The notes under the pieces are model-generated. The model ran no database searches. It was given only the letters and a program-made list of their open reading frames with translations, and was not told the origin of the DNA. Below, piece by piece: positions 566-52,004 of a stretch of DNA of 64,000 bases. The translations under genes were made by a program, and so were the position numbers. Numbering within the stretch: the stretch's first letter is position 1; each line of letters opens with the position of its first letter. The DNA comes from a virus (Duplodnaviria; Caudoviricetes). The stretch is from positions 64,001-128,000 of IMG/VR virus record IMGVR_UViG_3300047382_000771; one strand, 5' to 3'.

Positions 566-575
566 ATTATTACAC
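566..575 (-). promoter_or_regulatory. GTGTAH motif before the clp gene
   Basis: GTGTAATAAT; hexamer 11 nt before ATG 558; GTG TAA is also the last codon and stop of dnaE. Confidence 0.65.
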
Positions 576-3146
576 AGAATCGTTCTTAAAGTCGGAAAGT
601 TTCATGTAGATCATTTCGTCAATGATCCTTATTCGATTTAAAAATAATGCATCTCCAGACCTATTTTTTTCCCCATAAACAACAACTATGTTCCCTTCTG
701 AGGGGACCTTATTATCCTTTAAATATTCTGTGCATTTTTTGAACCTAGCTGTATCTACTAATATACCATCGACATTCCCGACCTCATCTTCGAGTTCGAG
801 TTTGATGTAAAGATTACCATTTCTGGATTTTTCTTTTTTTGCAAATTTAACGACCAGTAAATATTTAGCAACAGTACCAGCTTCGCACTCTTTAAAAAAC
901 TTAGAGTCCTTTAACTCCGAGTGTGAACTAGAAAATACATCTTTTAATCTAGTCGAGTAACTGAACCCAAGTAAGCTGCGTTCGAAGTACCAATTGGCGA
1001 ATTTCTGGTTCTTACTGTTTTTGTAGTATATTTCTTTTTGTGGCAAGTATTTTTTCTTAATAGTTTCATATCTAGATTCTTTAATTAATGGCTTGCCATC
1101 GTCCCCTGAGTATTTAAAACCAGAAGTTTTTGCTGAATTAAATATTTCGAACACGTCTTTATCTTCTTTTTCATGTATTGATATGAAGTTTCTTTTCTCT
1201 CTGTCAGTAAGAATATTAAATAATTGAGCCTCTAGTACTTGTTTGGCCCTATCTTCGTTTTGAGAGTCACTAAGAGCGCCTGCCTGTATTAAGGATGACA
1301 ATGTGCCTATATTGAGACCAGAATGCTTAGCTGCTATGAATACTTCGAATTTATTAACAAACTTTTCTTCCTTGAACAACTGTATGGCATGTAAAGTTTT
1401 ATCGCTTATGCCCTTTATGCTAGACAAACCATATCTTATGTTTCCATCTTCAACACAATAATCAAAATCAGATTTAACTAAATTTGGTGGTAATAGTTTT
1501 ATGTCAAAATTTGGTAGCTCTTTGCTGATATTAGAGACTTCAAGCTGCGGATTTGGCTCAAAGTTTGTCATTTTTAATAACGCAAGAAAGAACTCTTGTG
1601 GATGATTAAATTTTAAATAAACAGTCCATGCCGCTAATGTAGCGTAACTGATAGAGTGGCTTTTATTAAATGAATAATTAGCACTATCTTCAGCCACCTT
1701 CCATAAAATATCACCAATAGTCTCTTCGAGATTTTGTTCTTCTATCTTATCTTCAATCTTGCTTTTCCACTCTGGCATTTTGTCTACCTTTTTCTTGCCT
1801 ACAATTCTTCTTAATTGTTCTGACTCGTCAAGGGTGAACCCTAATCTCACCGCCATCTTCATTAACTGCTCTTGGTATAATGGTATACCACCAGTATACG
1901 AGAGCTCTTCTTCAAAGAAATCATGAACTACCTGAGCCTCTCCAGACCTAATATAGTCAGAGTACTTATCAACAAAATCTAATGCCCCTGGCCTGGCTAA
2001 AGCTATAACAGCACTAAGCTCTTCAAGGCTTCTGGGTTTCACTTTTCTGCAAACAGAAAAATTAGTATGAGCCTCTATCTGAAATAAACCATGCGGAGAA
2101 TCTAGTTCAGAGAAAGGGTAATAGGTCTTGTCTTCATCTAGAGGTATCTTTGTTGGGTCAATACCTATTGAGTTGCAGGTGTTGTAAATTACACTTAACG
2201 TACGCAACCCAAGAATATCAAACTTAACCATAAGTTCTGACACCCAATTCATATCATAACCAGTGACAAGAGAGCCGTCATTAGTTTTTTGAACGGGACA
2301 TATGTCTTCGATTGCATTACAGGAAATAGCTATGCCAGACGGATGAACTCCTGAGTTTTTGTTTAAACCCTCAAGCTTCCTTGAAATGTCTACCACCCTC
2401 GTGTTATCTTCGGACCACTCCTTGAATTTAGTACTCTCCTCTAAGGATTTATCTATAGATGCTACCTTCCCAAAATTCTTGGGTATAAATGATGTAACAT
2501 GATTTATGTCTTGCTCTATATAATTACCTACTATTTTTCCACACTCCCTAATGCAGAGTTTGCTGCTCAAAGTATTCAATGTGAGAATTTTAGCAGTTCT
2601 ATTTGGGTAGCGATTTTCTATGTAAGAAACAACCCTGTCCCTATGTTCATAAGAAATATCATTATCAATATCAGCTAGTAAGCTTCCATCAAGATATGTT
2701 ACTCCATCTTTCTTGATCTTTTTTGCTCGACTCTCACTCACGAACCTCTCAAAAAATAAGTCATACTTAATAGGGTCAATCTTTGTGACACCAATAAAGA
2801 ATAAAACTAAAGAACCAGCGGCAGAACCACGACCTGGCCCAGTAGGTATATCATTTTCATGACAAAAATTTAATATGTCCCAATTCAGCAATATATAATC
2901 TATAAACCCTAATCTTTTTAAAATTGATAGCTCGCTAGATAGTCTGCCCTTGTACCCAAGTTTATCTTTTGATAAATCAATCCCTTTTAGTTTAGCTCCC
3001 GATTCACAGATCCTTTTTAGAAACATGAAATTAGATGCCCCGTCCTCCAAACCAACAGACTCGTACTGTTCTTTAGAGATGTTGATAGTGGGAAGGAGCA
3101 CTCCCGCAGGGATGCATTCTTCATAACTTGTGTAGGAATCAAACAT
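570..3146 (-). CDS. dnaE: DNA polymerase III alpha-type (C-family) core lacking the PHP domain
   Basis: Motifs GPGRGSAAGSLV, DIDND (catalytic), SGVHPSGI, KFDILGL, GIPLYQEQLM, YSFNKSHS, IRYGLSSIKG and a C-terminal OB fold; begins just after the position of PHP. Confidence 0.95.
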   Translation of the reverse strand: MFDSYTSYEECIPAGVLLPTINISKEQYESVGLEDGASNFMFLKRICESGAKLKGIDLSKDKLGYKGRLSSELSILKRLGFIDYILLNWDILNFCHENDIPTGPGRGSAAGSLVLFFIGVTKIDPIKYDLFFERFVSESRAKKIKKDGVTYLDGSLLADIDNDISYEHRDRVVSYIENRYPNRTAKILTLNTLSSKLCIRECGKIVGNYIEQDINHVTSFIPKNFGKVASIDKSLEESTKFKEWSEDNTRVVDISRKLEGLNKNSGVHPSGIAISCNAIEDICPVQKTNDGSLVTGYDMNWVSELMVKFDILGLRTLSVIYNTCNSIGIDPTKIPLDEDKTYYPFSELDSPHGLFQIEAHTNFSVCRKVKPRSLEELSAVIALARPGALDFVDKYSDYIRSGEAQVVHDFFEEELSYTGGIPLYQEQLMKMAVRLGFTLDESEQLRRIVGKKKVDKMPEWKSKIEDKIEEQNLEETIGDILWKVAEDSANYSFNKSHSISYATLAAWTVYLKFNHPQEFFLALLKMTNFEPNPQLEVSNISKELPNFDIKLLPPNLVKSDFDYCVEDGNIRYGLSSIKGISDKTLHAIQLFKEEKFVNKFEVFIAAKHSGLNIGTLSSLIQAGALSDSQNEDRAKQVLEAQLFNILTDREKRNFISIHEKEDKDVFEIFNSAKTSGFKYSGDDGKPLIKESRYETIKKKYLPQKEIYYKNSKNQKFANWYFERSLLGFSYSTRLKDVFSSSHSELKDSKFFKECEAGTVAKYLLVVKFAKKEKSRNGNLYIKLELEDEVGNVDGILVDTARFKKCTEYLKDNKVPSEGNIVVVYGEKNRSGDALFLNRIRIIDEMIYMKLSDFKNDSV

Positions 3147-3345
3147 TATTCTGTAAGGTGTTTTCTATTTCAAGTAAATCTGTATAAACTGCGTATACTT
3201 CATCTGGTCTCGTGCTCCAATATTCTGGAGGTTTTGATAAGAAAAATTTAATTAGATCAGCTAAGTGTTGGTTGGCTTTGTTCTTGAGTAATGTGTCTTT
3301 TAAGTATTGGTATGTAATAGTATTATTCATATTGAAATATTCCAA
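3139..3345 (-). CDS. Hypothetical protein
   Basis: 68-aa ORF overlapping its neighbours in the polymerase cluster. Confidence 0.6.
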   Translation of the reverse strand: MEYFNMNNTITYQYLKDTLLKNKANQHLADLIKFFLSKPPEYWSTRPDEVYAVYTDLLEIENTLQNNV

Positions 3346-3974
3346 ATCATTTTATTAAAAACTTCAAAATTTTTAGTTATATCGTAAAGCGCATCATGCA
3401 GTTTTGCAGGATCAAAACTTATATCGTACTTTTTGCAACAAGAGGCTAAGTTTAAACTCATACCCCTCTCTCTGAAAGAATTTAATTTGAATTGAAAAAC
3501 AGATAAATCTTCTTTTTTGTTGTATGGTATTTCTTTTTGTATAGCTTTGCCGATTGATAATGTATCAATAGATCTTTTAAGATAACTGTAGTCAGTCTTT
3601 CTGCCTAAGCACTGTCTGAATATGTTGTGTATATATATATCAAAACCAAATATATTGTGCCCCAAATTTATGTACTCTGGATTATACAAGTAGGTCTCAA
3701 AGTGATCTAAGATAAAAGAAGGATCTTCGCCTCTAGCATTATATACTTTTCTCGAAAAACCAGTAATCTTTTCTGCATCTTTGGATATTTTTAAGTCATC
3801 CCATTTTATATAATAATCGTGCTTGGAAATAATCTTTGTTCCCTCAGCAATAATAAATGCTAACTGCCAAGGCTTGTTATCTTCTGACGCTAAATTAAGA
3901 TTGCAGGTTTCGAAATCAAAGATAAGATATTTTTGATCTTTTTTAAACCTTAAAAGTTCGTTATCCATTATCAC
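3327..3974 (-). CDS. DnaQ-like DEDDh 3'-5' exonuclease
   Basis: ExoI IFDFETC, ExoII GHNIFGFD, ExoIII LHDALYD. Confidence 0.9.
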   Translation of the reverse strand: MIMDNELLRFKKDQKYLIFDFETCNLNLASEDNKPWQLAFIIAEGTKIISKHDYYIKWDDLKISKDAEKITGFSRKVYNARGEDPSFILDHFETYLYNPEYINLGHNIFGFDIYIHNIFRQCLGRKTDYSYLKRSIDTLSIGKAIQKEIPYNKKEDLSVFQFKLNSFRERGMSLNLASCCKKYDISFDPAKLHDALYDITKNFEVFNKMIWNISI

Positions 3975-4167
3975 TTGAGAGGTTTTTTAAATTATTAATT
4001 AAAGCATGCTTTTCCTTGCTGGGTAAGGAGTTATACTGCCTCTTTAATGCTTTAAGCATTCTTTTGTGTTCTGGTATAGAGCTGTCATAATTTATGATAG
4101 ATTTTATTTTTTTAACAGTACTGGAATTCATAATTTTATATTTAGGATTGTTATAGGAGACTCTCAT
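3961..4167 (-). CDS. Hypothetical basic protein
   Basis: 68-aa ORF overlapping both neighbours. Confidence 0.55.
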   Translation of the reverse strand: MRVSYNNPKYKIMNSSTVKKIKSIINYDSSIPEHKRMLKALKRQYNSLPSKEKHALINNLKNLSSDNG

Positions 4168-4900
4168 AGCAAAATTCTTTACTACCCATGTGGTCTAAGT
4201 TGGGTTTTTCTAGAGAACTTTTTCTAGACGCGAAAGAGCTTCTAGAACATATGAGTTTATATGTTAAGAATGCTTCAAAATCTTTACGATTTTTATAAAA
4301 AACAGATTTAGTTTTATGGGTCGGGTAAGAATGATTCAATGTATAGTTTTTGATATTGTTTTCTAACATAAAATCAAAGGGTAAACCATTGTCTTCCAAA
4401 AAGAAATGAGGGTTAAAACTAGATAAATCCACGACAAATGAATTAAATAAAAATAAATTACAAAACAAAAAAGAATCATAAAATGGAACAGCTAAATCTA
4501 GATGGTCTGAATTCCAATATGAAGCCAAATCCGTTAAGGTGATAGCATTTATATCACTCGACTTTACTTTACTATAAATTTTAAATAAACACTTGCACCC
4601 TTCGGAATTCTTACTAAATACAATTAACTTATGTTTCGGAGTTTTTTTGTCTTCTGGGTCAAAAGATTCGTCTACTATATCTATTCTTAAACCGAATCTA
4701 AAATTAACATCCATAGCCTTAGCTACTTTGTTCGCTTGAAGGAAACCCATAAAGCTATCTTCAACCATTACTACTTCTGTAAGATTGTTTTCTTTAACTA
4801 TATCAAATACAGAATCTGATGAGCCATTCGACTCGGAAGGCTCGTTTAATGTTAAGATAGATTTACCAATAGAATAGTGGCTTTTGAATAGCGGTATCAT
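4151..4900 (-). CDS. Stand-alone PHP domain of a C-family DNA polymerase (degenerate metal site)
   Basis: PLFKSHYSIGKSIL...VVMVED...FGLRID...HKLIVFSKNSEG matches the DnaE N-terminal PHP pattern (HxHSxYS, TD, GxE, HLxLLAKNxxG) with several ligands lost. Confidence 0.8.
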   Translation of the reverse strand: MIPLFKSHYSIGKSILTLNEPSESNGSSDSVFDIVKENNLTEVVMVEDSFMGFLQANKVAKAMDVNFRFGLRIDIVDESFDPEDKKTPKHKLIVFSKNSEGCKCLFKIYSKVKSSDINAITLTDLASYWNSDHLDLAVPFYDSFLFCNLFLFNSFVVDLSSFNPHFFLEDNGLPFDFMLENNIKNYTLNHSYPTHKTKSVFYKNRKDFEAFLTYKLICSRSSFASRKSSLEKPNLDHMGSKEFCYESLL

Positions 4901-4939
4901 CGCTAAACATCATAGCAATAAACAGGTTCGAAGTCAAGG

Positions 4940-6094
4940 CTATTTTTTAGCTCTCTCAATGAAGTGGTCGGCTAAACCACCTTCGTCTATGTACTCCTGC
5001 AACTCTTCTAATAATTTATTCCTAATAGCTTTTACATCTGGTGGTAGCTCTTCCTTCTTGTGGGCTGCGAAAGTCATCGTAGCTGCTATCAGGAGTAGGA
5101 TAGCTAGAGGGTCAAATACGAATATAAGAGTTATTATAACTACACGGATGGCTTGATTAGTGTCAATAGACATACCTGCCCATTCGTTTAGCATGTTAGC
5201 TATATATAGGATTGGACCTATCTCCACTTCTAGGGCCCTTAATTTGGATCCATACTCAAATTTTTCTGACTCCATGACATCTATTCTGTCGTAAGCTTCT
5301 TCTATGACAGTTCTTGGGACACTTGTTTCTTTTGGAGCAATGGAGGTGCCTATTAAAATATTATCAATTTTATCTCTTGAGTCTTTTATTTTATCATCAA
5401 AACTTGAAGAAATAGATTGAATTTCTTCCTCAATAGATAAACGCTGTGAAGCTAAGCTTTCTTTTTCTTTTTTTTGAGCATCGACTAGTTGGTCATATTT
5501 TTTTTGACTCCCAAAAAGACCGCTTGGTTTTGCGTTTTTTAATTCTAGATCTAACTCCAAGAGCCTTCCTGATATATTTGTTATAATTTTCTCTTGTACA
5601 GATATAGAGGAAGACTTTTCTTCTTTTAATAATTTAACCCTAGACTCTAATACTGCAACAGTATCGCTCGAATTTTCTTGAGCGGACTGCATGGATTCAT
5701 TTAAGGATTTAAATTCTAACTCTTTTCTTTCTATAAATTTTAATTCCCTATTGATTTTATCATCTATCTGTTGAATGATTGCTTGTTCTTTTTCTATAGA
5801 TGCGTGGTGCTCCACGTGCGATCTTGAAAGGAAGCCAAAAATACCCATACTTGTTATCAAACTTAAAACAACAACAGAAAATAAAAGATAACGTTTAAGA
5901 AACTTAAATGCATTATTCCAATTATGGTGCAACCATACGGACGCAATAAGTTTTCCAATCTCCAGTACCCCGCCCATAATTATGATAGCTTCCCTTGAGC
6001 CTGGGAACATGGTAGCTAGACCTATGACACTAAAATAAGCTGCCGTCAAAGAAATAGATACGGCAGAAACAAAAACTAGTCCTGCAAAAAACAT
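4940..6094 (-). CDS. Membrane-anchored coiled-coil protein
   Basis: Three N-terminal hydrophobic helices, a long coiled coil and a C-terminal TM segment (IITLIFVFDPLAILLLIAA). Confidence 0.6.
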   Translation of the reverse strand: MFFAGLVFVSAVSISLTAAYFSVIGLATMFPGSREAIIIMGGVLEIGKLIASVWLHHNWNNAFKFLKRYLLFSVVVLSLITSMGIFGFLSRSHVEHHASIEKEQAIIQQIDDKINRELKFIERKELEFKSLNESMQSAQENSSDTVAVLESRVKLLKEEKSSSISVQEKIITNISGRLLELDLELKNAKPSGLFGSQKKYDQLVDAQKKEKESLASQRLSIEEEIQSISSSFDDKIKDSRDKIDNILIGTSIAPKETSVPRTVIEEAYDRIDVMESEKFEYGSKLRALEVEIGPILYIANMLNEWAGMSIDTNQAIRVVIITLIFVFDPLAILLLIAATMTFAAHKKEELPPDVKAIRNKLLEELQEYIDEGGLADHFIERAKK

Positions 6095-6355
6095 TTATAA
6101 GTCCTCCTTTAATCCTCTTTTCTTTATTTTATTATTTTGATATGTACAAAAAGTAATCAAAACAAAATGCCTACCCATAACTTTTTTATGAGTAATAGAA
6201 TAATTGTAGTTTTTTAGGAAACGAGATAAATCAATTAAGTATTTATCTTGTACATATATTATGATTTTTTTTGGATTACCTTTGTCGTCAATATCTTGAG
6301 AGAACATGACATCGTCTGCATATTCATAGCAAATATTTTCTATCGTAGTATTCAT
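6095..6355 (-). CDS. Hypothetical protein
   Basis: 86-aa ORF preceded by the GTGTAH motif. Confidence 0.6.
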   Translation of the reverse strand: MNTTIENICYEYADDVMFSQDIDDKGNPKKIIIYVQDKYLIDLSRFLKNYNYSITHKKVMGRHFVLITFCTYQNNKIKKRGLKEDL

Positions 6356-6361
6356 TCATAA

Positions 6362-6371
6362 TAATGTACAC
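6362..6371 (-). promoter_or_regulatory. GTGTAH motif
   Basis: GTGTACATTA; 10 nt before ATG 6355. Confidence 0.6.
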
Positions 6372-6377
6372 TACAAA

Positions 6378-7448
6378 TTACAAAAAATCATCAATTTCTA
6401 CAGCAGGTTTATTCCAATAAGGGCAGCCTTTGTATTCCATTTTTTCCACATATTCCCCTTTAGATTCGTCAGGTGTAAGTATATTTTTGGCTTCTTCAAA
6501 AACTGACTTAATAATTTTACCAGATTCATTTTTGATAACATAATAAGTCAACGGCTTCCTGTAAGAACATATATATGCCACGATAGGCTCACCGTTTTTA
6601 TCTAAAAGGGGACTACCTTTAGATATTTTATAACCATCCTTCCCGCACATTAGCGGGCCGCCAAAGGTTCCGTCTTGAGGATAACCTTGTGATCCAGCAA
6701 AGTTAGCTACTGCGTCTTGCTCGTCAAAACTATCTAGGAAAGATTGTATATCGGTTAAGTGAAGCTCTACCCCCTCTAGCTCTTCGTCTGATAAATTTTT
6801 CATTTTCAAATTGCCATTCGCATTTAAATCAAACTTTAAAAACAAAAACTCAACTTGACGTTTGGTGAAATTAGGGAACATTTTTTTAACAGCGAGAGTG
6901 TAAAGAAAATCTTGGAGATTATCTGTCACTTCTTTACCTTTGAAAATTTGCTTACTGCTCTTAAAGTCTCTGATGATGGCGGTGCTTTTTTCTTTATACA
7001 AGAATAATTTATCAATAAAGCCTCTAAGTCGGTAAAGTTTTCCTGCTTCATCAACAGTAATATCAAAAGATTGCTCAGATATAGCTTGATCGGGCGTCCC
7101 ATTATGATTGTCCCCGAAGAAATCAAAGTGCAGGCCTGCCAGCGTCATGTCGTCAATCATTTTTAAATTGTCTACATCGTTTACATTTAATTTTTTAGCA
7201 TGATACTGGACCAGCCTTTTGATTGGGGCACACGCAAATATAGAATCTTTAAGAATGATTTCGTCATATATTTTTTTGTGTTTTTCTTCCCCTAATAACT
7301 CAAAGATTAAGTGGCATATCCATCCCCTGCTTGCACCATCGTTACTTTTGTCTGGAACTTTTAAATGGTATGTAGCCCAATAACTCCAAGAGCAACTTTG
7401 GGCTTTTTTAATTTTACTAGCTGATAGTGGAGTGAGTTCTTTTTTCAT
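6378..7448 (-). CDS. PD-(D/E)XK nuclease (RecB/AddB/Cas4-like exonuclease)
   Basis: LSASKIK...C, GWICHLIFE, SEQSF, LRGFIDKL, IRDFKSSK, QDFLY; cysteines near both termini. Confidence 0.85.
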   Translation of the reverse strand: MKKELTPLSASKIKKAQSCSWSYWATYHLKVPDKSNDGASRGWICHLIFELLGEEKHKKIYDEIILKDSIFACAPIKRLVQYHAKKLNVNDVDNLKMIDDMTLAGLHFDFFGDNHNGTPDQAISEQSFDITVDEAGKLYRLRGFIDKLFLYKEKSTAIIRDFKSSKQIFKGKEVTDNLQDFLYTLAVKKMFPNFTKRQVEFLFLKFDLNANGNLKMKNLSDEELEGVELHLTDIQSFLDSFDEQDAVANFAGSQGYPQDGTFGGPLMCGKDGYKISKGSPLLDKNGEPIVAYICSYRKPLTYYVIKNESGKIIKSVFEEAKNILTPDESKGEYVEKMEYKGCPYWNKPAVEIDDFL

Positions 7449-8482
7449 TACATGTGTTTTTTGAATGATTGATAAGCAGATTTAGATATATCACCAGATT
7501 CATTGTAAGATTTTATATCACTATCTATTTGTTCTAGATTTGAGCCTGGCTCAGAAAGGTTTGATGACCAGACTTCTATCTGATATTCATTCATGTCTCC
7601 GAAGTCATTAAGTGTCGGAGGGTTAATAGCTATCCTTGATCGAGAGAAATAATTCAAAAGCTTACAATAAACTCCTAGAGATCCTATTTTGCCTCTATTT
7701 TTTTCTTTCCCTTCATCGTTATTAAGACAAATGTGAATACATTCAGCGTCAATACTTAATAAAAAACATAGAACTTTTGAAGATATAGATGTACCAAAAG
7801 TACATATAGTATTATGTATACCTGCAGAATGAAGTGATAGTATATCACCTATACTTTCAACTAAATATATACATCTGTTTTCTTTAATTGAATTTAGGAA
7901 TATATTTTCACCGTCAACGGGAACAAAAGCTGGGTATACCCAATTAGTTTTTTTACCGACATGTTTCCATTTGGGCCTATTAGAGGATTTACTATTCATG
8001 TCCCTTCCGCTGAAACCATGTATCTGACCAGTTTCATTGTAAATTGGGAAAACGAACCTTTGATACATAGCCCCCTCTGTAGCGAGACCCCCTTTTAAAT
8101 TAACCAAGACATCTTCACTAACCCCCTTGTTGGTATAAAAAATATAGTGAGGCATTAATTTTTGCAGAATGGATTCGTCGTATATTTTTTCAGAAGACAT
8201 TTTAGGTTTTTGCTGATTTACTGGGTTGTTAGAAAAGTTTTCTAAAAACTCACTAATTTTAGATTCATCTGTAGTTTTAATTGTTGCACAAATTAATTCC
8301 TTAAATGGCATTCTTGGGGTGTTTTTAACGAAGTCAGTCCACACCCCTGTGTCCTTATATATCATTAAAGCTGTGGGATTATTACCACCCCTGTACAATG
8401 CACTGGTCCTCCAATGATTGCCGCAATCTTGCAGAGAGTAGCCCATTTTGTTTAGGCTAGTTTTAATTACTTCTTGATTCAT
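7448..8482 (-). CDS. DNA primase (DnaG-like, TOPRIM)
   Basis: RFVFPIYN...GFSGR, LVESIGD, LNNDEG (DxD variant) and DFGDM. Confidence 0.85.
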   Translation of the reverse strand: MNQEVIKTSLNKMGYSLQDCGNHWRTSALYRGGNNPTALMIYKDTGVWTDFVKNTPRMPFKELICATIKTTDESKISEFLENFSNNPVNQQKPKMSSEKIYDESILQKLMPHYIFYTNKGVSEDVLVNLKGGLATEGAMYQRFVFPIYNETGQIHGFSGRDMNSKSSNRPKWKHVGKKTNWVYPAFVPVDGENIFLNSIKENRCIYLVESIGDILSLHSAGIHNTICTFGTSISSKVLCFLLSIDAECIHICLNNDEGKEKNRGKIGSLGVYCKLLNYFSRSRIAINPPTLNDFGDMNEYQIEVWSSNLSEPGSNLEQIDSDIKSYNESGDISKSAYQSFKKHM

Positions 8483-9984: not shown

Positions 9985-9994
9985 GTTTTATTTA

Positions 9995-10267
9995 TTAGTT
10001 GGAATCCTCTGGATCTATATCTCCGAAGCCAAACATGGATTCAGATTCTTCTAAGTTGGTGAGGTATTTTTCCAAAGATTTGCGTAATCCCATTTCTATG
10101 ATTTGGTTTTGAGCCCTTGTATAAACAAGAGGTTTTCCCTCTTGAGTTACGAAAGCTAATATGAAACCTTTGTGTTGGTTTCCCTCCCCGCTTAATTCAA
10201 AAATTGTATCAAGCAATGATTCGGGCATTTCAAATTTATTTAAGTCGTCTGGATTTATATCTGACAT
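9995..10267 (-). CDS. Hypothetical protein
   Basis: 90-aa ORF preceded by GTGTAATATA. Confidence 0.65.
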   Translation of the reverse strand: MSDINPDDLNKFEMPESLLDTIFELSGEGNQHKGFILAFVTQEGKPLVYTRAQNQIIEMGLRKSLEKYLTNLEESESMFGFGDIDPEDSN

Positions 10268-10272
10268 AATAA

Positions 10273-44100: not shown

Positions 44101-46573
44101 CAGGAACATATGTAACCTCTACTTCGTCCCCTGGGTATATAAAAAATAATTGATTTATTTGAAATGTAACCAATGCTTCATCTACTAAGGGATTCGTTAT
44201 TATATGTTTTACTGGATATTCTTCTTCTGGTCTTACGTCTCCAATATCTCCTAATGAGTCTAATGAAATAAAAACTGGGTCATCCGATACAGCGGATGTG
44301 TCTTCGTTGTAAAAAACTACCCCAGGATTTTCTATAGTAATTTCTTTCCATAAGTTACTATTCGTTTCGGGATCTGGATCTATGGCTGTAAAAATGGTGG
44401 GAAATTCTTCGGCAACAGTTTCTAAAAACCCTCTTCCGTTTAATTCTATTTTCTCGAAATAAACAACCCCTTGCTGAGCTTGATCACTTAAAGATACTAT
44501 AGTTGAATTTTCATCACTTAAGTCTCCCTCTGGGATAGCTGTTATTGTTTTATAAACAGACGTATTATTAAAGTAAACAACATCATTCACTGCAAAAGGT
44601 TTAGCTGGCCTAAATTGCTTAAACCTTGTTGCTGCTTCTGGGCCAGCCCTAAAATAACCAGAACCTACTAGATCTAAATCCTGATTATTAGGTATACCAT
44701 CACCATCATCGTCATCCATAGGATATTGGCCCATATATTCAGGCTCTTCAAAAACCACGGTATTCGCATCGTAAGCCATATTGTATGTAAAAACTTGAAT
44801 ACCATCCCCAGGATTGTCTGGATCTTCTTTAAATATTCCTCTAGCCTCAAATAACCTTGTTCCCTTTTTAACTATTGGGAGCGGGTCAAATTGTCCAACA
44901 ACATAATTAGACGCAGGACTATACTCAGTATCGGTGGCTCTTAATGTTTTATACCTAACCTCTGTAGTTCCATTAAAAAATGTAACTATTGTGCCCTTGG
45001 GATAAAAAGGTGTAGATTTATTAAAATCTTTAAAATTAGTACCCTGGAACTTAGCCGCATTAACTTCATCTAATATTCTAGGCCCAAAAAGTTTTGCGTT
45101 TATTGGTTTTGTTTCCCCTATAAACTGGTAAGGCTTTTCTAACAAAGATTGATCGTTTGCTCCAATCTCTCCTTTTGTATTCCTAGCTACATCAATATCA
45201 AACTGTAATAGATTATAACTTTCTTGTACAGTTGTTTCGTCTATATATTTCTCTTCTTTTACTGGTAGGTCATTAAGTAAAACAGCCTTAAGGTAACTAT
45301 CCGAACCATCTCCAGGATTACTGTCTTTCGCATCTGTAAAAATTAAATCATTACCATCGTCATCAGAGAATCCTTGAATTGGTCCTTCGCATATTAAATC
45401 TACTATTGTAGCTATCGCTGAAGACTCGAATTTATACCAACCTAAACCATTCCTTTTACTTCCATTCTTGTATCTTCTTCCAACACAAATAACATTTCCT
45501 AGGTTAGAGGATTGAACATTAGTTGGGTCATCTACAAGTTGAGCATTCCTGAAATTTATCGGATAAAATATTCTTTCTGAAGAATCGTTAATTCTTTTGG
45601 GTTCGCTCTGCAGCATAGTGAAAGGAGCTAAATGTAAATCAGCCTCTTTAACTGTAGCTATTCCTTCTTGTGGAGTTGGTCCCCAATCCCCATTGTAACT
45701 ACTATAATTTTGAAGGAAATATTCTGGCACCCCTTTGTTATAAATAGTTTTATAATACAATGTGCCCGCACTTAAAAAACCCTTACCAAGTTTTTGCTTT
45801 TCAATAGCTTCCTCCCCTGTGTATGATACATCTGCTCCGTACATTCCATCATTAGATCCAAAACCTGTAGCAGGGTCCCTAGATTTAAGAGCCTTAAATA
45901 CTATACTTTCTATACCCATTTCTGATGGCCCGTCAGCGATAGAGGAAAAAGCACTAGATAATAGCGGGCCAGGATCTTCTCCTAATTGCTCAATTAATAA
46001 CTGTCTGTATTTATTATATAAAGGTATAAGGTGGTATGCTCCATTTTCTAATTTATATATTTTACCTAAATCAGCATCATATTCATAATTATTAATTGAA
46101 TTTGATACAACCTTAGAGCCCACTTTCATTTTACCGTAACCAAGTGGTACATTACTACCTTGTTCTGTTACATTCTCCACACCCCTATAAATATAAGATT
46201 TGGTTTGAGCTTGTAAAACTCTAGTATCTCTCTCTTTCTTCCCTAGCATTTTATTCTGAATCCATCCGCTAAGGAAACTTGTACCAAAAGACATAGCCAT
46301 TCCCATAACCATTCCAGCACCTTGAGCTACAGGAGATATAATAATATCTTCTTTTGTATTTTTATCTATTTCTTCTTGGCGGAAATACTCATTAGAGTCT
46401 TTCTTCTTAAAAGAGTACCTAACTCCATCCATCTCTTTAGATTGCAGGTATTGTATAAAACCATCAGTATTTGCTTCGATAGCCGATATAGCTTCTAGGG
46501 GAGACCCCACATCTAGTTCCCACTTTTTCCCAAAGCGTTTGCCTAGTTTTCCATATAAGTATACCTTTTTCAT
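41168..46573 (-). CDS. Fused lambda gpI-gpJ-like tail tip / host-specificity protein with inserted C-type lectin, CBM-like and Ca-binding segments
   Basis: gpI: VYLYGKLGKRFG...EAISAI and QGSNVPLGYG. gpJ: VDLICEGPIQG, WTDNPAWCLYD, RYKMNAV and GVTSKSQAQR. Confidence 0.9.
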   Translation of the reverse strand: MKKVYLYGKLGKRFGKKWELDVGSPLEAISAIEANTDGFIQYLQSKEMDGVRYSFKKKDSNEYFRQEEIDKNTKEDIIISPVAQGAGMVMGMAMSFGTSFLSGWIQNKMLGKKERDTRVLQAQTKSYIYRGVENVTEQGSNVPLGYGKMKVGSKVVSNSINNYEYDADLGKIYKLENGAYHLIPLYNKYRQLLIEQLGEDPGPLLSSAFSSIADGPSEMGIESIVFKALKSRDPATGFGSNDGMYGADVSYTGEEAIEKQKLGKGFLSAGTLYYKTIYNKGVPEYFLQNYSSYNGDWGPTPQEGIATVKEADLHLAPFTMLQSEPKRINDSSERIFYPINFRNAQLVDDPTNVQSSNLGNVICVGRRYKNGSKRNGLGWYKFESSAIATIVDLICEGPIQGFSDDDGNDLIFTDAKDSNPGDGSDSYLKAVLLNDLPVKEEKYIDETTVQESYNLLQFDIDVARNTKGEIGANDQSLLEKPYQFIGETKPINAKLFGPRILDEVNAAKFQGTNFKDFNKSTPFYPKGTIVTFFNGTTEVRYKTLRATDTEYSPASNYVVGQFDPLPIVKKGTRLFEARGIFKEDPDNPGDGIQVFTYNMAYDANTVVFEEPEYMGQYPMDDDDGDGIPNNQDLDLVGSGYFRAGPEAATRFKQFRPAKPFAVNDVVYFNNTSVYKTITAIPEGDLSDENSTIVSLSDQAQQGVVYFEKIELNGRGFLETVAEEFPTIFTAIDPDPETNSNLWKEITIENPGVVFYNEDTSAVSDDPVFISLDSLGDIGDVRPEEEYPVKHIITNPLVDEALVTFQINQLFFIYPGDEVEVTYVPGATLFAVIGAITGAGYAADLMAESDEPFDLGAFLTSVIWGGVVGLIFGIILEKNSEFKIGTKIENSGETWPNRVQVRIHYGNEGETLYETDVSFFGTCTGGYMKDIKIYLPPNPLGRPRIIKAFKITRERNVVREGESAARYKDDVALANITEISTIKTNYPNSVVIGTRVSAKEVPQQLRRNYNLKLKKVKVPNNYDPVLKTYGQAWNGQFSDELVWTDNPAWCLYDLISNNVYGLGKFGMEEEFIDKWTFYKVAKFCDELVPTGYSSTYPRRNFKTVGSARILMEGQFLTKEQFGQEFKHIQKNIALFWEENGYKKRALRKIVSVTGDETIGRYYVVLDRGIGNVMEGTCAAEIYYPVIEHRYKMNAVLSQPSNAFKLINEIADIFRAYTYWGGGKINFYQDVPTNSIMLFTNNMVSSEGFQYSNTPRSSRTNSVKVKYLDQYNRYRPKIAFAENREKIVENGLYEESINALGVTSKSQAQRTAEFLVQGKNLETEIVTFNTAHPGSYLRPGDVIDILDNKKTVGRFAGKVLNIDVSGDGKVAYLDIDFPVRTIVDSFDNRTHKKIKLYNISGYNTLETLNQKSLYGDAITDEEIDSIRIGQIGEYTIGSITNNDTRVQVINNPYEHISGKFTFVTAMQDARLRGGDVASIANEVDQQFVGDVLPKDDNELAWIGGYYRETPPPEKFVWVNPQGCTDDEIDFYNWGVGYPKVGLTIARDPLEDEFGNTESDIGRDRIASLEAQEGVETDSPSYPKPLVSESMEIIVEDPDLPSGYNFICVSGSSDFEDHGDWVTHDKNILKSYILERKTDDALLKLHDIEGTTFVIEDELNLATTKQYKVLNIIEEGDAIYKIEAMEYNSGKFGTIEDNATLPVPRSPIVMNTNFTPPPENIYIEMLDEDEELGLKYGLRIFWNEVSAARLYRVQVFHSKQLIKTLELGNKNINRDDLTKQISYDFRDTSIEEGKSYYVRIEAVP

Positions 46574-46599: not shown

Positions 46600-47328
46600 T
46601 TAAGAATTAGGTCTGTATACTCTAACTATTCTTTTTCTCCATTTATCGTCTAAAAAGTCTTCGCCAGATAAGTGGTGAGCTTTTTGATGATAAAATTCAT
46701 CTACTTCAGAGCAAACACCTACGTGCAATACATCTTCATTAGGGATATGAAATATCAACATGTCATGTTTTCTTATGTCTTCCTTATCTTTAACTTTAGT
46801 AAATCCCTCCTCAAATATTTTAAGCATATATTTGTTAGCTTTTTTACCATCTATAGGGGGAAAATAATTAAAGGATTTATAATCTAATTTAAACCAAGGG
46901 CATCTTTCGGAATAATAATCTCTAGGAATATTAACGCACTCACAAAAGCCCCTAACATAAGGTCTACCAGTTAGACTTGGCGGCTCAAATGAATCAGGTA
47001 TATATAAAAATATTTTTTTAGTTACCAAGCTATATATTAAGAAAGGTATACCCAGTTCTTCTGAATTATTTATATCAACCTGAGATGGATTCTCTGAAGA
47101 TGTAGGATGGGAGTGATATATACCTAAAAGTTTTTTTTGCCCTAAAATTTTTAAAGGAGAAATCTCAAACATTCTCTGTTTATCAAAGCTTTGATTTTTT
47201 TCCCTAGTAACTTTAACTATCAAATTAGAATCTAAAGATATGGTACCGCAAACTTCTTCACTTGGATTTGATTCTGCGTGCTCTATAATTTCTTTATAGT
47301 AATCTTTATTTTGTTTATTCAAAGTCAT
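46600..47328 (-). CDS. Tail tip assembly protein K-like (JAB/MPN plus NlpC/P60)
   Basis: EEVCG, YHSHP...PSQVD, GRPYVRGFCEC and LHVGV. Confidence 0.9.
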   Translation of the reverse strand: MTLNKQNKDYYKEIIEHAESNPSEEVCGTISLDSNLIVKVTREKNQSFDKQRMFEISPLKILGQKKLLGIYHSHPTSSENPSQVDINNSEELGIPFLIYSLVTKKIFLYIPDSFEPPSLTGRPYVRGFCECVNIPRDYYSERCPWFKLDYKSFNYFPPIDGKKANKYMLKIFEEGFTKVKDKEDIRKHDMLIFHIPNEDVLHVGVCSEVDEFYHQKAHHLSGEDFLDDKWRKRIVRVYRPNS

Positions 47329-48340
47329 AAGGTTCTACTCCTGGAAAACCTCCGAAGGGCAAACCTTCATTGAATTCCGTATATAAATCGTCATCTCCTT
47401 GGTTTGATTGAAATCTTTTACACCCCCCAGCTTCTTTTGCGTCATCTGAATACCTTAACCTGCAGCCACAGATACTTTTGTCACACTGATCTTGAATCCA
47501 GTTTTTTCTATCAAACAAGGGGCTTGATATAACTTCCTTACCAATGCACACATATATAGATATAGGCTGGTTTTCTGATGTGCCTGTTTTTGGTGTTATG
47601 GTTACAACATCTCCCTTATTGTAAGTCCCATATGCAGTCCATTCTGGGTAAGATCCATTTTCATCAGGCTCAGCAAAACCATCAGGAAAATCATCTTTAT
47701 TCAAATGCACAAAAGCCCCCACATCTTCGCCTTCGTATCCAAGTTCCACGAATCTTTGGTTTTTTATGTCAGCTATAGGTTTACCCACATAACCACATCC
47801 GACTGTAGATCTATATTTCCACTCACAGTAATTAGAATATATTGTTCTGGATGGTATAGTTGAATTTTCAAGCTCCAACGGAGATACTAACTCAAACTCC
47901 ACTAAATCATCAGTTTCTCTTAATTTTTGGTTAACAAAATATATCTCTCTAGCAAAAGCCTCCTCTGGGTCTGGTTCAGCATAAGGATTAATATTGTTTG
48001 GGAAGTTCGAATGATCTAAATATTTTAATAAAGTTTTTATCCTAGTAACTCTGTAATTTGTAAAGTCATTAAATATTGGCAGCCTTACCGATATGTTACC
48101 TCTATAATTAGACAAAGTCATGGTCGGCCTAGGTAGTCTTCCATCGCCTTGAAATTCAAACCCCTGAACTTCTATAGGGTAATATAAATATTCCATACCG
48201 TCAAAAACAATTTTACCACGAAACTCATTCTCTCCAGCATGAAAAGTAAACACACCCCTTTCCTTTATATCCAGCTGATATAATACTATAGGCATAGTAG
48301 GGTCTGCCTGAAATAAATCTTTTACTTTTTCTTCTTTCAT
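47315..48340 (-). CDS. Minor tail protein L-like
   Basis: YPIEVQGFE..GDGRLPRPTMTLSN, KYLD..NFP, CEWKYR...CGY, CDKSICGCRLR and LPFGGFPG. Confidence 0.92.
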   Translation of the reverse strand: MKEEKVKDLFQADPTMPIVLYQLDIKERGVFTFHAGENEFRGKIVFDGMEYLYYPIEVQGFEFQGDGRLPRPTMTLSNYRGNISVRLPIFNDFTNYRVTRIKTLLKYLDHSNFPNNINPYAEPDPEEAFAREIYFVNQKLRETDDLVEFELVSPLELENSTIPSRTIYSNYCEWKYRSTVGCGYVGKPIADIKNQRFVELGYEGEDVGAFVHLNKDDFPDGFAEPDENGSYPEWTAYGTYNKGDVVTITPKTGTSENQPISIYVCIGKEVISSPLFDRKNWIQDQCDKSICGCRLRYSDDAKEAGGCKRFQSNQGDDDLYTEFNEGLPFGGFPGVEPYDFE

Positions 48341-48341
48341 T

Positions 48342-49838
48342 TTAGTATGAACTCGTACTTATGTTACCGCCTGTATTTGTCTGGTTATTAATTTCGCCTA
48401 TTTGAGTTCCCTCTGCAACATCTTCTTCGCTTGCTGAAACTATATTGTTATATAATATGATTTTAGGGTCATAGTTTCCAAGGAAAAATGTTTTATTTTC
48501 AATTAGCCCCTCAGGCATAAAATACATCTTGCCGTTAAACTCAAACTTCCTAAACGCTCCGCTTCCTGATTTTTCCGCGCTAGCTTTAGATAAATACAAC
48601 GGATAGTAACCTTGAACATTTTTAGGCGACTCTATATACGAGCTACCAATATCTACAGCTAGCCTTTTATCACTTTTTACATTTTCCGAAACGATACCCC
48701 TTAAAGGTAAATCATATACTCTACTAAATTCAATTGATTTATTAAGTGCGGTAACAAACGAATATTCACGACCAAGATATCTTTTATTGGCTCCTAATTT
48801 AGTTGCTCCCCCTAAACCTATATGCCATCTCATAGATTGGCCAAGCCTACCCTGCTGCTGTTGATATTCTGACATTATTTTTATGTCATCTGATGCTCCA
48901 TGCCTAGACAATTGATAGGATATAACTTTTTTTAGTTTAATAGGGTCATCCGTACTTAGAGATTGCCCTATGTTTTGTACAGAATCTTTCCACAGAAAAT
49001 CTCTAAGCATGCCATCCCAATGCCTGTTTACGAAATTCTGAATTTCCTTAACATAAACCTCGTCCCTTATTTCTTTAGTATCGAATGTAGAGTCGGCATT
49101 CGAGTCGTCATTTATTCGAAAAATAGAGTTCCATTCTTTAATTAAATTCCTTTCACTATATTCGCCTGTATAGATAGGGTATATTCTCCTCGTCTCTGGT
49201 ATACCTGATATATCTTGGGACAATTCTGTCGTTATATCAGGCTTGATTTGCAAAGAAAATATAGATCCTTTTTCCGATGAAGAATATATATCAAATACAC
49301 AAATGCCTTCTGCATTTTCTTGAACATCTATAAAAGGAATATTAGATTCTCCCGCTTCTAATTCTAACAACTCCATAATGGAAGCTCCACTCCAGCCGCC
49401 AGAAAACATATCACTCAAAACTATAGTGTTCCCTTCAACTATGCCAGACATACCTATATCCTGAGGATCAAAATCTCCAGTTCCAGTAATCAGATAACCT
49501 CCCGACCAATAAGACCCTCCAGGCAACCTTAATTCATTTTCGATTTGTTTAGAACTCGATAGTGAGCTAGACCTCTGTCCAGGTACCCAAGAAAACTGAT
49601 CAGGGTATCCTAGTAAATTGTTTTTGTCTAGATTTAAATCTCTTTCTTCGTTATTAAAAAAAGATATTCTTTTTACTGTGTGAATATAATCAGACTCAGT
49701 TAAATAAGTTATAAAACCAGATCCATTTATTGTTCTCAAAACTAGAGTTGAGACCGAGTCTGGATCCATCGCTATACCTAAACTGACACCATCATTGTAG
49801 GTATTGAAATCCCCGCTATTAAAATTAATTTTTTTCAT
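48342..49838 (-). CDS. Hypothetical tail-module protein
   Basis: Lies inside the tail operon; start placed at MKKINF (TAATG overlap). Confidence 0.6.
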   Translation of the reverse strand: MKKINFNSGDFNTYNDGVSLGIAMDPDSVSTLVLRTINGSGFITYLTESDYIHTVKRISFFNNEERDLNLDKNNLLGYPDQFSWVPGQRSSSLSSSKQIENELRLPGGSYWSGGYLITGTGDFDPQDIGMSGIVEGNTIVLSDMFSGGWSGASIMELLELEAGESNIPFIDVQENAEGICVFDIYSSSEKGSIFSLQIKPDITTELSQDISGIPETRRIYPIYTGEYSERNLIKEWNSIFRINDDSNADSTFDTKEIRDEVYVKEIQNFVNRHWDGMLRDFLWKDSVQNIGQSLSTDDPIKLKKVISYQLSRHGASDDIKIMSEYQQQQGRLGQSMRWHIGLGGATKLGANKRYLGREYSFVTALNKSIEFSRVYDLPLRGIVSENVKSDKRLAVDIGSSYIESPKNVQGYYPLYLSKASAEKSGSGAFRKFEFNGKMYFMPEGLIENKTFFLGNYDPKIILYNNIVSASEEDVAEGTQIGEINNQTNTGGNISTSSY

Positions 49839-50680
49839 TATGGCCAATTAGGTTCATTGATCGTATCAAGTTTATACATTTGATTAGCTAAAGGTCCAAA
49901 GTAAGCTGTCCTAGGGATTGCTGTTAAACTATTAACAAGATTAGTTCCATTATAATTCCAATTAAGCACTATACCTAAATGAGTAGGAGGTTGTTGTGTA
50001 AATCTAAGCTGAAACGGGTGAAGGCCTTTCTTTAAAAAAACACTTCCTGTAGCACTCCAAGCAAATCCATGATTACTGTAATCATCATCAATAATTAATG
50101 TTCTATTAGTTGGAGCTAGACCACCTTGAAATATATAAAATATCGCCCTATCATCCGATATTGTAGCAAATTTATAGGTGCCATCTACTGGTGCATAAAT
50201 TTGACCATCCCAAACAGCTGCGAAATACTGGGTTAACGAGGTCATTCCAGGAAACCCTTTAGTGTAAGACTGGTTAGGCACATTTATTTGGTGACTACAC
50301 ATATCTGTTTTAAATTTACCGTTATAGTTAGTATCTGTCTTTAGTCCATTAGCTCCAATACCTCCAATTTGGTAAAGCCTTAATGCCATAGGCAATCCAG
50401 GCGACCCACAAGGACCCCCGAACGCAGAGAATACAGCTGATGGGTCAGGAGCTGGAGCGGGCTGAGGCACTTCTTCTACATCTACAACATTGATATTGAA
50501 ATTTTTCTCCAAGCTCAAACCCCTCTCGTCCGTGCAAGACACTCTAATTGAAAAAGAGGGATTATTAAAAGCTTCGTAATCTAAGCTTTGAACAAGTTTA
50601 ACCTTTCCATCTTCGGTGACAGAAACATATTGGTTACCTTCACTCCCTGCCCCAGATACTAATTTAAATTTTCTAGCCAT
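49838..50680 (-). CDS. C-terminal part of a cadherin domain plus a PA14 domain
   Basis: LVSGAG..N...LDYE...FSIRV..TDERGLSLEKNFNINVVDVEE; PA14: WDGQIYAP.DGTYKF...SDD...LKKGLHPFQL. Confidence 0.85.
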   Translation of the reverse strand: MARKFKLVSGAGSEGNQYVSVTEDGKVKLVQSLDYEAFNNPSFSIRVSCTDERGLSLEKNFNINVVDVEEVPQPAPAPDPSAVFSAFGGPCGSPGLPMALRLYQIGGIGANGLKTDTNYNGKFKTDMCSHQINVPNQSYTKGFPGMTSLTQYFAAVWDGQIYAPVDGTYKFATISDDRAIFYIFQGGLAPTNRTLIIDDDYSNHGFAWSATGSVFLKKGLHPFQLRFTQQPPTHLGIVLNWNYNGTNLVNSLTAIPRTAYFGPLANQMYKLDTINEPNWP

Positions 50681-50681
50681 T

Positions 50682-52004
50682 TTATTCTACCACTCCTAGT
50701 TGACCTATTAATGTTCCAGCTGGAAGGTTTTCTTTGATATCTGAATTAGATAATGTTATATCCGTAAAAGGCACATACCTTGCGGCATCCAACTCCACAA
50801 ACCCAGGCGAAAAACAAAATCCTTCATTCACAAAATCTCCTTTCTCGGATAAAAATATATTATTATCCCTCAAAGTATTATCTCTTTTTTCTGTATTAAA
50901 AAATATAGACATATTACTGACAAGTGTCGAAGGACTATCGGTTGTAACATCTATATGCATGCCTGTGTATTCAATACCATCGAAATATATTCTCTCGTTT
51001 TGCCTAAAATATGTTCCAGTTACTTTTGCATTATTAAAGTCTATAATTTCAATAGCGTAACTATCCAACATTTCATCTAAGCTCGAAGCGTCAAATATAG
51101 CTTTATTAAATGTCGCCATAGCTGCCTTAAATGACACTTGGTCTTTACAATACTTTTGGGTTATCTGTTGAGACAAACCCTGTAATGCAAAAAACTTATC
51201 ATAATCACTATCAGTAATATCAGAAAATATACCAGATGTTAATAAACAATTCTCGAATTCTAAATCCCCCAAAGGATTTTGATCTTCGCAAGAATAATAA
51301 CCTTCATAGTTCTGGTAATTAAGTAGTGGCTCTCTATCAAGCTTGTCGCAAACTAATTCCCCACTAACAATGAAATTTGTATCACAATTATTTGTTTCAC
51401 AATTAACAATAGGAAACCCTGGGAAAATACTAAACTTTGCATGCCATGCGTCTCCAGTCCTATTCTCCCAAGACCCTTCTCTCCCATCCTCTATTTCATT
51501 TCTTGACGGATGAAAAAATGTTGGTATCCTTAATCTTGTATAAGGAGCTATAGTGGCTGGCAAATAGTCCTCATCCACATTTCCTGTATTATATTCCTCT
51601 AACCCCTTATATGTTTGCTCGAAAATAGTAAACCTAACTGGGTCAGAATTAGTAAAGCCAGTTATAGTAATTGGCATATCGCAAACATTTACTATCTCCA
51701 AAGACTTACCATCAGCCGTTAAACCGACTGGTTCATTACAGGGGTATGTTATTTCTGAAGTTTCACAGTCGTCTAAATAAATAACCTGAGGCTGACCAGG
51801 AGCAACACCAGAAACACCATCGGTTAAAATAAGCTTATTATTATATGTTGCTTGCTTTAGGATCCAATCTTCATATGTAGGTGAAGATGGGTCAGTATCT
51901 TGTACATAATACAACCCTGTTTCCTGAAGTAGTCCACCGCAATTCGCATACTCAGTAATACCAGTGTAAGCGAAGTCGACGTTTTTGTCATTCAAGAAAC
52001 TCAT
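50682..52004 (-). CDS. Tail-module protein ending in the first two strands of a cadherin domain
   Basis: Ig-like middle (LEIVNVCDMPITIT) and C-terminus FTDITLSNSDIKENLPAGTLIGQL. Confidence 0.7.
   Translation of the reverse strand: MSFLNDKNVDFAYTGITEYANCGGLLQETGLYYVQDTDPSSPTYEDWILKQATYNNKLILTDGVSGVAPGQPQVIYLDDCETSEITYPCNEPVGLTADGKSLEIVNVCDMPITITGFTNSDPVRFTIFEQTYKGLEEYNTGNVDEDYLPATIAPYTRLRIPTFFHPSRNEIEDGREGSWENRTGDAWHAKFSIFPGFPIVNCETNNCDTNFIVSGELVCDKLDREPLLNYQNYEGYYSCEDQNPLGDLEFENCLLTSGIFSDITDSDYDKFFALQGLSQQITQKYCKDQVSFKAAMATFNKAIFDASSLDEMLDSYAIEIIDFNNAKVTGTYFRQNERIYFDGIEYTGMHIDVTTDSPSTLVSNMSIFFNTEKRDNTLRDNNIFLSEKGDFVNEGFCFSPGFVELDAARYVPFTDITLSNSDIKENLPAGTLIGQLGVVE

Follow-up and report, generated by a model that had tools for sequence, protein, structure and literature searches.

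Apparent gene fissions within or near protein domains in tail, glycosylation and replication genes of an uncultured marine phage

Results

Gene content of the analysed stretch

The DNA examined here is part of a 200,094-bp uncultured marine phage in IMG/VR (record IMGVR_UViG_3300047382_000771), the record of which is rated complete by CheckV. We analysed bases 64001–128000 of this record, a stretch of 64,000 nucleotides with about 58 genes (hereafter the window; positions are those of the window). In four places, protein domains appear to be divided between separate genes: a cadherin repeat and a fibronectin type III (FN3) domain in tail proteins, a GT9 (heptosyltransferase-like) glycosyltransferase, and a C-family DNA polymerase whose PHP domain is detached from the core (Table 1). 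The replication block, on the minus strand, encodes DnaB, primase, RecA, ribonucleotide reductase and the alpha subunit of DNA polymerase III (Pol III). It is accompanied by a glycosyltransferase cluster, a short plus-strand block and a lambda-like tail-tip block, in which gpM, gpL and gpK domains are found together with a J-like protein. Neither the window DNA nor the PHP protein p249 had a match among the INPHARED phage records, and thus no close relative is found among isolates; the isolate matches are distant DnaE proteins only, with ~27% identity. Many metagenomic relatives are present in IMG/VR.

Table 1 Coordinates and evidence for the divided domains and the polymerase genes of the window
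Feature	Position	Strand	Evidence
Last 32 residues of the 440-residue tail protein (50682–52004), cadherin strands A–B	50685–50780	−	P0055 alignment
First 72 residues of the 280-residue PA14 protein (49838–50680), strands C–G of the same repeat	50465–50680	−	Pfam Cadherin, P0055
Last ~105 residues of the 638-residue GT4+DUF4214 protein (34942–36858), putative start of the GT9 N-terminal Rossmann domain	36535–36858	+	Orthologue heptosyltransferase matches
First ~175 residues of the 386-residue protein (36855–38015), putative remainder of the GT9 fold	36855–37379	+	PF01075, RfaQ
Last ~85 residues of the 1801-residue J-like tail-tip protein (41168–46573), FN3 strands A–F only	41171–41425	−	Unit HMM, AF2
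First 26 residues of the 786-residue fibre protein (38808–41168), candidate donor G strand and linker	41091–41168	−	Conserved motif
p249, stand-alone divergent PHP domain (putative detached DnaE-type N-terminal domain)	4151–4900	−	Orthologue PF02811 matches
exo215, DnaQ/RNase T-type 3'-5' exonuclease, between PHP and core	3327–3974	−	PF00929
pol858, Pol III alpha core (palm, thumb, fingers, helix-hairpin-helix) without PHP	570–3146	−	PF07733, PF17657, PF14579
p68b, small open reading frame between exo215 and pol858	3139–3345	−	Only in L002 and L003; no family match

A cadherin repeat divided between two tail proteins

Residues 15–65 of the 280-residue protein alone gave a sub-threshold match to Pfam Cadherin (profile positions 41–92 of 93, E-value 0.012–0.047). 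In a read-through fusion of the 440- and 280-residue proteins, the match extended across the junction to positions 4–92 of 93, with 16.9 bits (18.7 bits for the fusion from the related locus L107); these fusion scores are below the 28.8-bit gathering cut-off of PF00028. A search with the N-terminus of the 280-residue protein identified P0055, a bacterial adhesin with intact repeats. When the two cadherin pieces of Table 1 were joined into one query, positions 4–104 of the query aligned with two consecutive intact repeats of P0055 at 36.4 and 30.2 bits, and the best of these alignments spans P0055 residues 970–1071. A full repeat was covered only when the proteins were joined. The pieces alone scored 18.0 and 12.6 bits, the A–B piece aligning to P0055 970–995 (12.6 bits) and the C–G piece to P0055 1007–1071, and 20 shuffles of the upstream piece gave at most 20.0. 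The joined ends from the related loci L107 and L108 showed the same behaviour against P0055. The cut replaces the acidic B–C loop of the intact repeats, where the phage sequence is shorter by 4 residues. At the position of this calcium-binding loop, the phage DNA has a stop codon, a 1-nucleotide (nt) spacer and a start codon. These alignments confirm the predicted split of a cadherin repeat across the gene border.

The A–B end is conserved in L090, L107 and L108, and the orthologues of the 280-residue protein (73–91% identity) are all 280–281 residues long. A second arrangement is found in L104–L106, where the upstream protein shares 68% identity with the 440-residue protein over its whole length and keeps strands A–B, which are internal. 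They are followed by ~208 extra residues, comprising a proline-rich linker and a ~150-residue domain, and by a 9-nt gap to the next gene, the product of which still begins with strands C–G. Both orphan cadherin halves persist in two architectures.

The upstream protein of these 73% relatives has 647 residues (L106:305-2248). Its extra ~150-residue domain has no family assignment and is absent from the window. In a search for longer, fused forms, only the bacterial adhesin P0055 was found, which is weak evidence. The 280-residue protein and the 786-residue fibre protein had no homologues in four complete related genomes, and single-protein scans of IMG/VR found only the 96% relative.

A GT9 fold divided between two glycosyltransferase-cluster proteins

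In the 638-residue protein, a GT4 domain and DUF4214 are followed by the ~105 residues listed in Table 1. The orthologues of this upstream tail match positions 1–57 of five full-length heptosyltransferase models, L087 matching TIGR02195 (E 1.1e-5, the best value) and L089 matching TIGR02193 (E 2.9e-4). A profile of the upstream-tail family placed a GT9 structure (3tov_A residues 8–63, E 0.15) at the top of 177,635 PDB sequences. Pfam searches on single open reading frames (ORFs) and 200-residue ends, at E up to 10, gave nothing for the GT9 N-half.

The downstream protein matches the other end of the fold. Residues 70–143 of the 386-residue protein correspond to positions 155–228 of the 247 in PF01075 only (31.1 bits, cut-off 22), and the full-length models RfaQ, RfaF and RfaC are matched over positions ~225–304 (RfaQ 244–304 of 352, E 2.6e-6). 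Positions ~198–334 of the heptosyltransferase profiles fall in the 386-residue protein, complementary to positions 1–57 in the upstream protein. The family profile of the 386-residue protein matches WaaC 146–282 and WaaF 244–335. Since residue 6 of this profile aligns with WaaC residue 146, the downstream half begins ahead of the final N-domain helix, and it contains this helix together with the linker and the C-terminal sugar-nucleotide domain. Both parts of a GT9 enzyme are found at the locus: the C-terminal nucleotide-sugar domain in the 386-residue protein and the N-terminal acceptor domain, but the latter is encoded in the preceding gene. In a read-through fusion, the downstream Pfam match was not extended over the junction.

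The GT9 border recurs in 8 loci with identities as low as 31%, and 7 relatives share the first 8 downstream residues without change. The halves are parted by a stop and a start codon in all 8 loci, and in none of them do the halves form a single polypeptide. In two relatives, a DUF6165 gene lies exactly between the halves (L087:4615-5001, E 4e-8; L089:4594-5004, E 3e-10), and in one related locus a 1-nt gap replaces the ATGA overlap. Because of this intervening gene and this gap, direct translational coupling is not essential for GT9. The profile matches confirm the predicted division of the GT9 fold between two genes.

An FN3 domain at the end of the J-like protein and the N-terminus of the fibre

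The J-like protein matches PF24801 at residues 884–978 and PF13550 at residues 1197–1346. An exhaustive search with its last 110 residues retrieved 48 proteins, of which ~40 are tandem FN3 arrays with a period of ~94 residues and the canonical F-strand, FG-loop and G-strand motifs of FN3. Eight representatives, drawn from clusters defined at 50% identity, carry the FN3 domain at their extreme C-terminus and, like the window protein, end 2–4 residues after strand F, whereas the homologous tandem units always extend ~17–20 residues further. A 98-position hidden Markov model (HMM) of the unit, built from 126 tandem units, matches the J-like protein at positions 20–80 (E 6.6e-11), and the match ends at the end of the protein. 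Homology to FN3 is therefore given by the array homologues and the unit HMM, and positions 81–98 are absent, leaving the seven-strand set (A-B-C-C'-E-F-G) incomplete. The AlphaFold2 (AF2) model of the J-like C-terminus, with a predicted local distance difference test score (pLDDT) of 86, ends in strand F. Model residues 20–110 superpose on Tencon residues 1–76 of 93–97, with Z scores of 8.2–8.4, root-mean-square deviations of 2.0–2.2 and 72–73 aligned residues. Because the unit HMM match stops at position 80 of 98 and both the AF2 model and the Tencon alignment end at strand F, strand G is missing from the C-terminal FN3 domain of a whole family of J-like proteins.

The fibre gene follows immediately. 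Its product shares an N-terminal motif ending in P-x-x-K-[FY]-G with 7 relatives (25–82% identity), in which S11, P17, P21, K24 and G26 are invariant, and the first 26 residues are the best-conserved part of the fibre. In the AF2 model of fibre residues 1–200, residues 1–20 are coil (pLDDT 46 and 67 for the 10-residue blocks) and the rest folds well. The next gene after the J-like gene in six related loci begins with a 1-nt overlap (TAATG or TGATG) or after a 1-nt gap. From its position, conservation and disorder, we infer that the N-terminal segment of the fibre may supply strand G. A motif scan of the retrieved proteins found no chain with the fibre N-terminal motif in an internal position, and in a phmmer comparison of the joined FN3 junction with the tandem arrays, a shuffled control outscored the true fusion.

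Related genomes show other arrangements next to the J-like gene. In two complete relatives, L101 (G002:C1:103000-115000) at ~6066 and L102 (G003) at ~6034, J-like proteins of 1649 and 1595 residues, respectively, end in P-x-A-P-x-[DN]-[FL], and giant ORFs of at least 1982 and at least 2021 residues start 2–5 nt later; the likeness of these ORFs to strands B–G was seen by eye only. A split of FN3 in these two genomes, with strand A at the end of the J-like protein and the next giant ORF continuing from strand B, had been considered by eye and was rejected, the family and unit HMMs giving it no support. In L103 (G004:C1:55000-70000), a 237-residue ORF (2913–3626), the N-terminus of which resembles that of the 1801-residue protein, is followed by a 2875-residue ORF (3630–12257). 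These two ORFs of G004 are another fission or fusion difference in the J-like gene.

Separate PHP, exonuclease and polymerase core genes

PF02811 is matched by 17 of the 26 p249 orthologues (best E 4.2e-7), and it matches nothing in any frame of the whole phage genome, the p249 copy of the window included. The Atlas feature neighbours of p249, at 0.98, are viral PHP clusters, and the best PDB matches of the p249 family profile are PolC PHP segments, which are weak (E 0.2). Exo215 covers PF00929 completely (profile 1–164 of 164, E 7.7e-11). Pol858 matches PF07733 from residue 43 (3–260 of 260, E 4.7e-60), PF17657 (E 3.3e-32) and PF14579 (E 3.4e-14), and DnaE structures are matched at E 1e-38. 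The palm and thumb, the fingers and the helix-hairpin-helix of a C-family polymerase are all found in this chain, and an N-terminal PHP domain is not.

In the alignment, residue 62 of the core corresponds to residue 318 of E. coli DnaE, and therefore core residue 1 lies at approximately DnaE 257. The PHP/palm border of E. coli DnaE presumably lies at about residue 270, which would put the start of the core within some 15 residues of that border. Three ORFs lie between PHP and core, namely exo215 and two 68-residue ORFs, of which the one adjoining the core (p68b) is shared with the two closest relatives only. In 80 IMG/VR loci with 55–98% identity, PHP, exonuclease (~213 residues) and core (~855 residues) are separate ORFs wherever they are covered. 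The p249 gene is kept upstream of the exonuclease and polymerase genes in most of these loci, and the start of the core is kept within ~10 residues in nearly all of them. The comparison shows a stable, real fission of a C-family polymerase. Its cut lies close to a domain border, and the genes that carry the two parts are not neighbours.

One relative has a longer polymerase ORF of 1110 residues (L027:5233-8565), with 256 extra N-terminal residues that have no Pfam match, and retains a separate PHP gene as well. After the polymerase gene, at 1–558 of the window on the minus strand, lies the gene of a ~800-residue Clp_N protein, which continues in relatives (e.g. L002:8589-11003) and adjoins the polymerase in most of them.

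Gene-border geometry and frequency of divided domains

The junction sequences that the earlier note on this DNA had described are present as claimed: ATGA at 36855–36858 (GT9), TAATG at 41166–41170 (J-like protein and fibre) and TAA-A-ATG at 50678–50684 (cadherin). Among the 55 same-strand junctions of the window, we counted 7 ATGA overlaps, 9 1-nt overlaps of the TAATG type and 4 junctions with a 1-nt gap. Tight geometries of these kinds thus make up 20 of the 55 borders overall and 8 of the 11 in the tail block. Tight stop/start spacing is the default of this genome and no marker of split domains. All split junctions shift frame over 0–4 nt. Reassignment of the stop codons at the junctions was rejected, because the halves lie in different frames.

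The same note had proposed a genome-wide tendency for gene borders to fall inside domains, which was not borne out: the four cases make up 4 of the 55 same-strand borders of the window, and one of the four is at a domain border. Pfam searches on the ~58 single proteins showed terminal truncation only for GT9, together with the weak cadherin match; seeming truncations elsewhere (e.g. GT6 from profile position 75) lie within otherwise collinear matches. Two control read-through fusions (47318–49847 and 20462–21173) gave no junction-spanning Pfam match. The scan for truncated domains covers the window only, not the other 136 kb of the record or any control phages, and nothing found in the window supports a claim on frequency in the whole genome.

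Two other genes of the window were noted. In the 1098-residue product of 54796–58092 (minus strand), PF05939, the lambda gpM-type family, is matched at residues 695–812, so that the minor tail protein M forms part of a much larger protein here. Inside the replication block, 12169–17547 (minus strand) encodes a 1792-residue protein that contains 18 repeats of the Flg_new_2 type (InlB B-repeat-like) and has a glycine-rich domain at its C-terminus.

Discussion

Favoured explanation

We consider, with a probability of about 0.6, that the four cases are separate, evolutionarily stable gene fissions rather than the product of a genome-wide habit, and that the halves reassemble in trans, the tail splits acting as joints. 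That the halves assemble in trans is the simplest way to account for them. The analysis shows that they are present, line up with intact domains and are retained as orphans; their mutual binding, and its role in attaching the proteins, we infer. Each orphan tail half would fold only against its partner, and a split beta-sandwich domain would form a physical joint between successive tail proteins through strand donation in trans. At the end of the J-like hub, this would be an FN3 domain without strand G, followed by the conserved fibre segment that is disordered alone; in the second pair, cadherin strands A–B would end one tail protein and strands C–G would open the next, the PA14 protein. Both the FN3 domain without G and the cadherin C–G half without A–B have the form of a donor-strand acceptor, an immunoglobulin (Ig)-type fold with a missing strand. 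The GT9 enzyme, of the GT-B type, would be a hetero-oligomer in which the C-terminus of the preceding GT4-type protein carries the start of the N-domain and the next gene encodes the remainder. Likewise, the DnaE-type replicase would be a hetero-oligomer of the stand-alone PHP protein, the DnaQ-type exonuclease and the PHP-less core.

The four cases listed in the earlier note did not fare equally. GT9 and cadherin stand as divided domains. For FN3, the upstream truncation stands, and the donation of strand G is not borne out by sequence statistics. For the polymerase, the separate genes stand, and the cut is not clearly inside a domain. The break points are conserved, as that note had asked of relatives: the GT9 cut is kept to 31% identity, the cadherin cut to 73%, and the truncation of the J-like FN3 domain across nine representatives of 50%-identity clusters.

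Several observations weigh against trans-assembly of divided domains. The polymerase cut coincides with a domain border or lies close to one, and is not clearly inside a domain. The GT9 N-half of the window itself has no NCBIfam match, and only its orthologues match. At the border of the 1801- and 786-residue proteins, Pfam fn3 matches nothing in the window proteins, their ends or their fusion, nor in the fusion from G002. An HMM of strands F and G ranked the true junctions 27–243 among 245 ORF N-termini, with no enrichment, and joining the J-like protein to the fibre left the unit-HMM score unraised (35.5 versus 36.4 bits). Since two sequence tests failed, the assignment of strand G to the fibre stays at the level of a suggestion. 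In addition, the J-like protein is probably trimeric, and the open edge of FN3 could be covered within the trimer. For the cadherin halves, complex prediction lends weak support to the pairing, with a score of 0.42 versus 0.18 for the best of 3 controls; passes at the 0.42 level are more often wrong than right unless the complex is already likely. Of the solved complexes, 58 of 80 attain the mark for this score, compared with 2 of 110 mismatched pairs, and passing scores of 0.60 or less were given by only 7 of those 80 solved complexes and by both passing mismatches. The runs for the cadherin complex agreed in at least 77% of contacts, with a partner pLDDT of at least 56. Solved cadherin folds may also be remembered by the predictor.

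Alternative explanations

For the tail cases, the strongest competing explanation is that the truncated domains are self-sufficient or are completed within homo-oligomers (e.g. by strand swapping in the J trimer), that the N-terminus of the fibre binds elsewhere, and that the border at the FG loop is the boundary of a recombination module. We regard this as unlikely, and FN3 is less clear in this respect than cadherin. The A–F model of FN3 is confident on its own, the G strand of the fibre has no sequence-statistical support, and the identity of L109 is 49% downstream of the border versus 72% in the border region, all of which fit this rival. On the other hand, nine distant J-like representatives stop at the same place while the tandem units carry the additional ~17–20 residues, and the segment of the fibre that is unstructured alone is also its best-conserved part. 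The 2+5 cut of the cadherin repeat leaves neither half plausibly stable, yet both are conserved. A further alternative is that the splits are artefacts or decay, whether a frameshift from sequencing or assembly, a recent pseudogene, or a programmed frameshift that joins the ORFs. All junctions change frame, as expected of an indel or a frameshift site, but the same borders recur in many independent assemblies from different samples at 25–98% identity, and genuine stop and start codons are retained at offsets that vary (a 1-nt overlap versus a 1-nt gap; a 4-nt overlap versus a 1-nt gap). Since the frame offsets differ between relatives, one frameshift mechanism cannot serve all of them. Among longer proteins no single-chain form was seen, which is weak evidence. 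Taken together, artefact or decay is very improbable.

The model of the earlier note, in which cuts inside domains are a genome-wide design and translational coupling of neighbours leads to co-translational assembly with fixed order and stoichiometry, seems to us improbable, though better placed than artefact or decay. It draws on the tight spacing in three of the four cases (ATGA, TAATG or 1 nt) and on the J/fibre spacing, which is kept in 6 of 7 relatives. However, only 4 of the 55 borders are affected, such spacing is shared by 20 of the 55, and the Pfam scans of the ~58 genes and the two control fusions revealed no further case. In the relatives, neither adjacency nor coupling proves necessary: in two of them the DUF6165 gene parts the GT9 halves, and in L104–L106 the A–B strands of cadherin are internal and a 9-nt gap follows. 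In the polymerase, PHP lies three ORFs away from the core.

Separate fissions with reassembly in trans are thus the explanation we retain. A more specific version for the tail is tentative, and we think it somewhat less probable than its negation. It proposes a plug and socket, in which the FN3 hub would accept any fibre with a ~26-residue plug that donates strand G, and the 2+5 cadherin repeat would join two further tip proteins. This would be a widespread, undescribed principle for building and exchanging receptor-binding modules.

Implications

If the halves pair in trans, the cuts give residue-level predictions of how the tail tip is fastened in a large group of uncultured marine siphophages. 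They would also predict where fibres exchange, with a possible use in the grafting of receptor-binding proteins. Under the same condition, a C-family replicase can operate with PHP as a subunit of its own, and half of a GT9 enzyme can come from a neighbouring glycosyltransferase, which would physically couple two steps of glycan synthesis. The cases also call for caution in annotation, since single-ORF profile searches missed three of the four.

Comparison with known systems

In the literature searched, we found no paper on strand complementation between siphophage tail-tip proteins and none on a detached PHP subunit. Viral C-family polymerases have been described with PHP in the same chain (PMC3201878). 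The phage replicase seems to use the same three modules as the E. coli Pol III core, in which epsilon sits on the PHP domain of alpha, and as PolC, in which the exonuclease is inserted in PHP (3f2b, 9qpc). Its gene order is PHP, exonuclease, core. Unlike the described C-family enzymes, PHP is a separate 249-residue protein, and the core begins at approximately DnaE 257.

Alg13/Alg14, the split GT-B UDP-GlcNAc transferase of eukaryotes, forms one active site from two polypeptides (PMC8993221, PMC4973528). The phage GT-B glycosyltransferase is likewise encoded in two polypeptides with Rossmann-like halves, the association of which is predicted here. It differs from Alg13/Alg14 in three respects: it belongs to the heptosyltransferase-like family GT9, the cut lies before the last N-domain helix (~WaaC residue 140) and not cleanly between the domains, and another glycosyltransferase (GT4 with DUF4214) carries the N-half at its end.

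Strand donation is established in chaperone-usher pili, and donor-strand exchange occurs between the protomers of contractile sheaths (PMC13266070). As in pili and sheaths, where another polypeptide supplies the strand and thereby makes a fibre-building joint, the phage tail domains are Ig-type folds with a missing strand. In contrast to these systems, the putative partners are two different products of a siphophage tail tip with no evident chaperone, and the domains are an FN3 domain lacking one strand and a cadherin repeat cut 2+5. Lambda gpJ and the central fibre of F-type pyocins carry FNIII domains, and side fibres attach via a helical shaft or a distal tail protein (PMC13455828). The phage J-like tip protein resembles lambda gpJ in carrying FNIII domains (Pfam PF24801). 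Unlike lambda gpJ and the F-type pyocin fibre, its C-terminal FN3 domain stops after strand F, and the fibre is encoded by a gene of its own that follows immediately.

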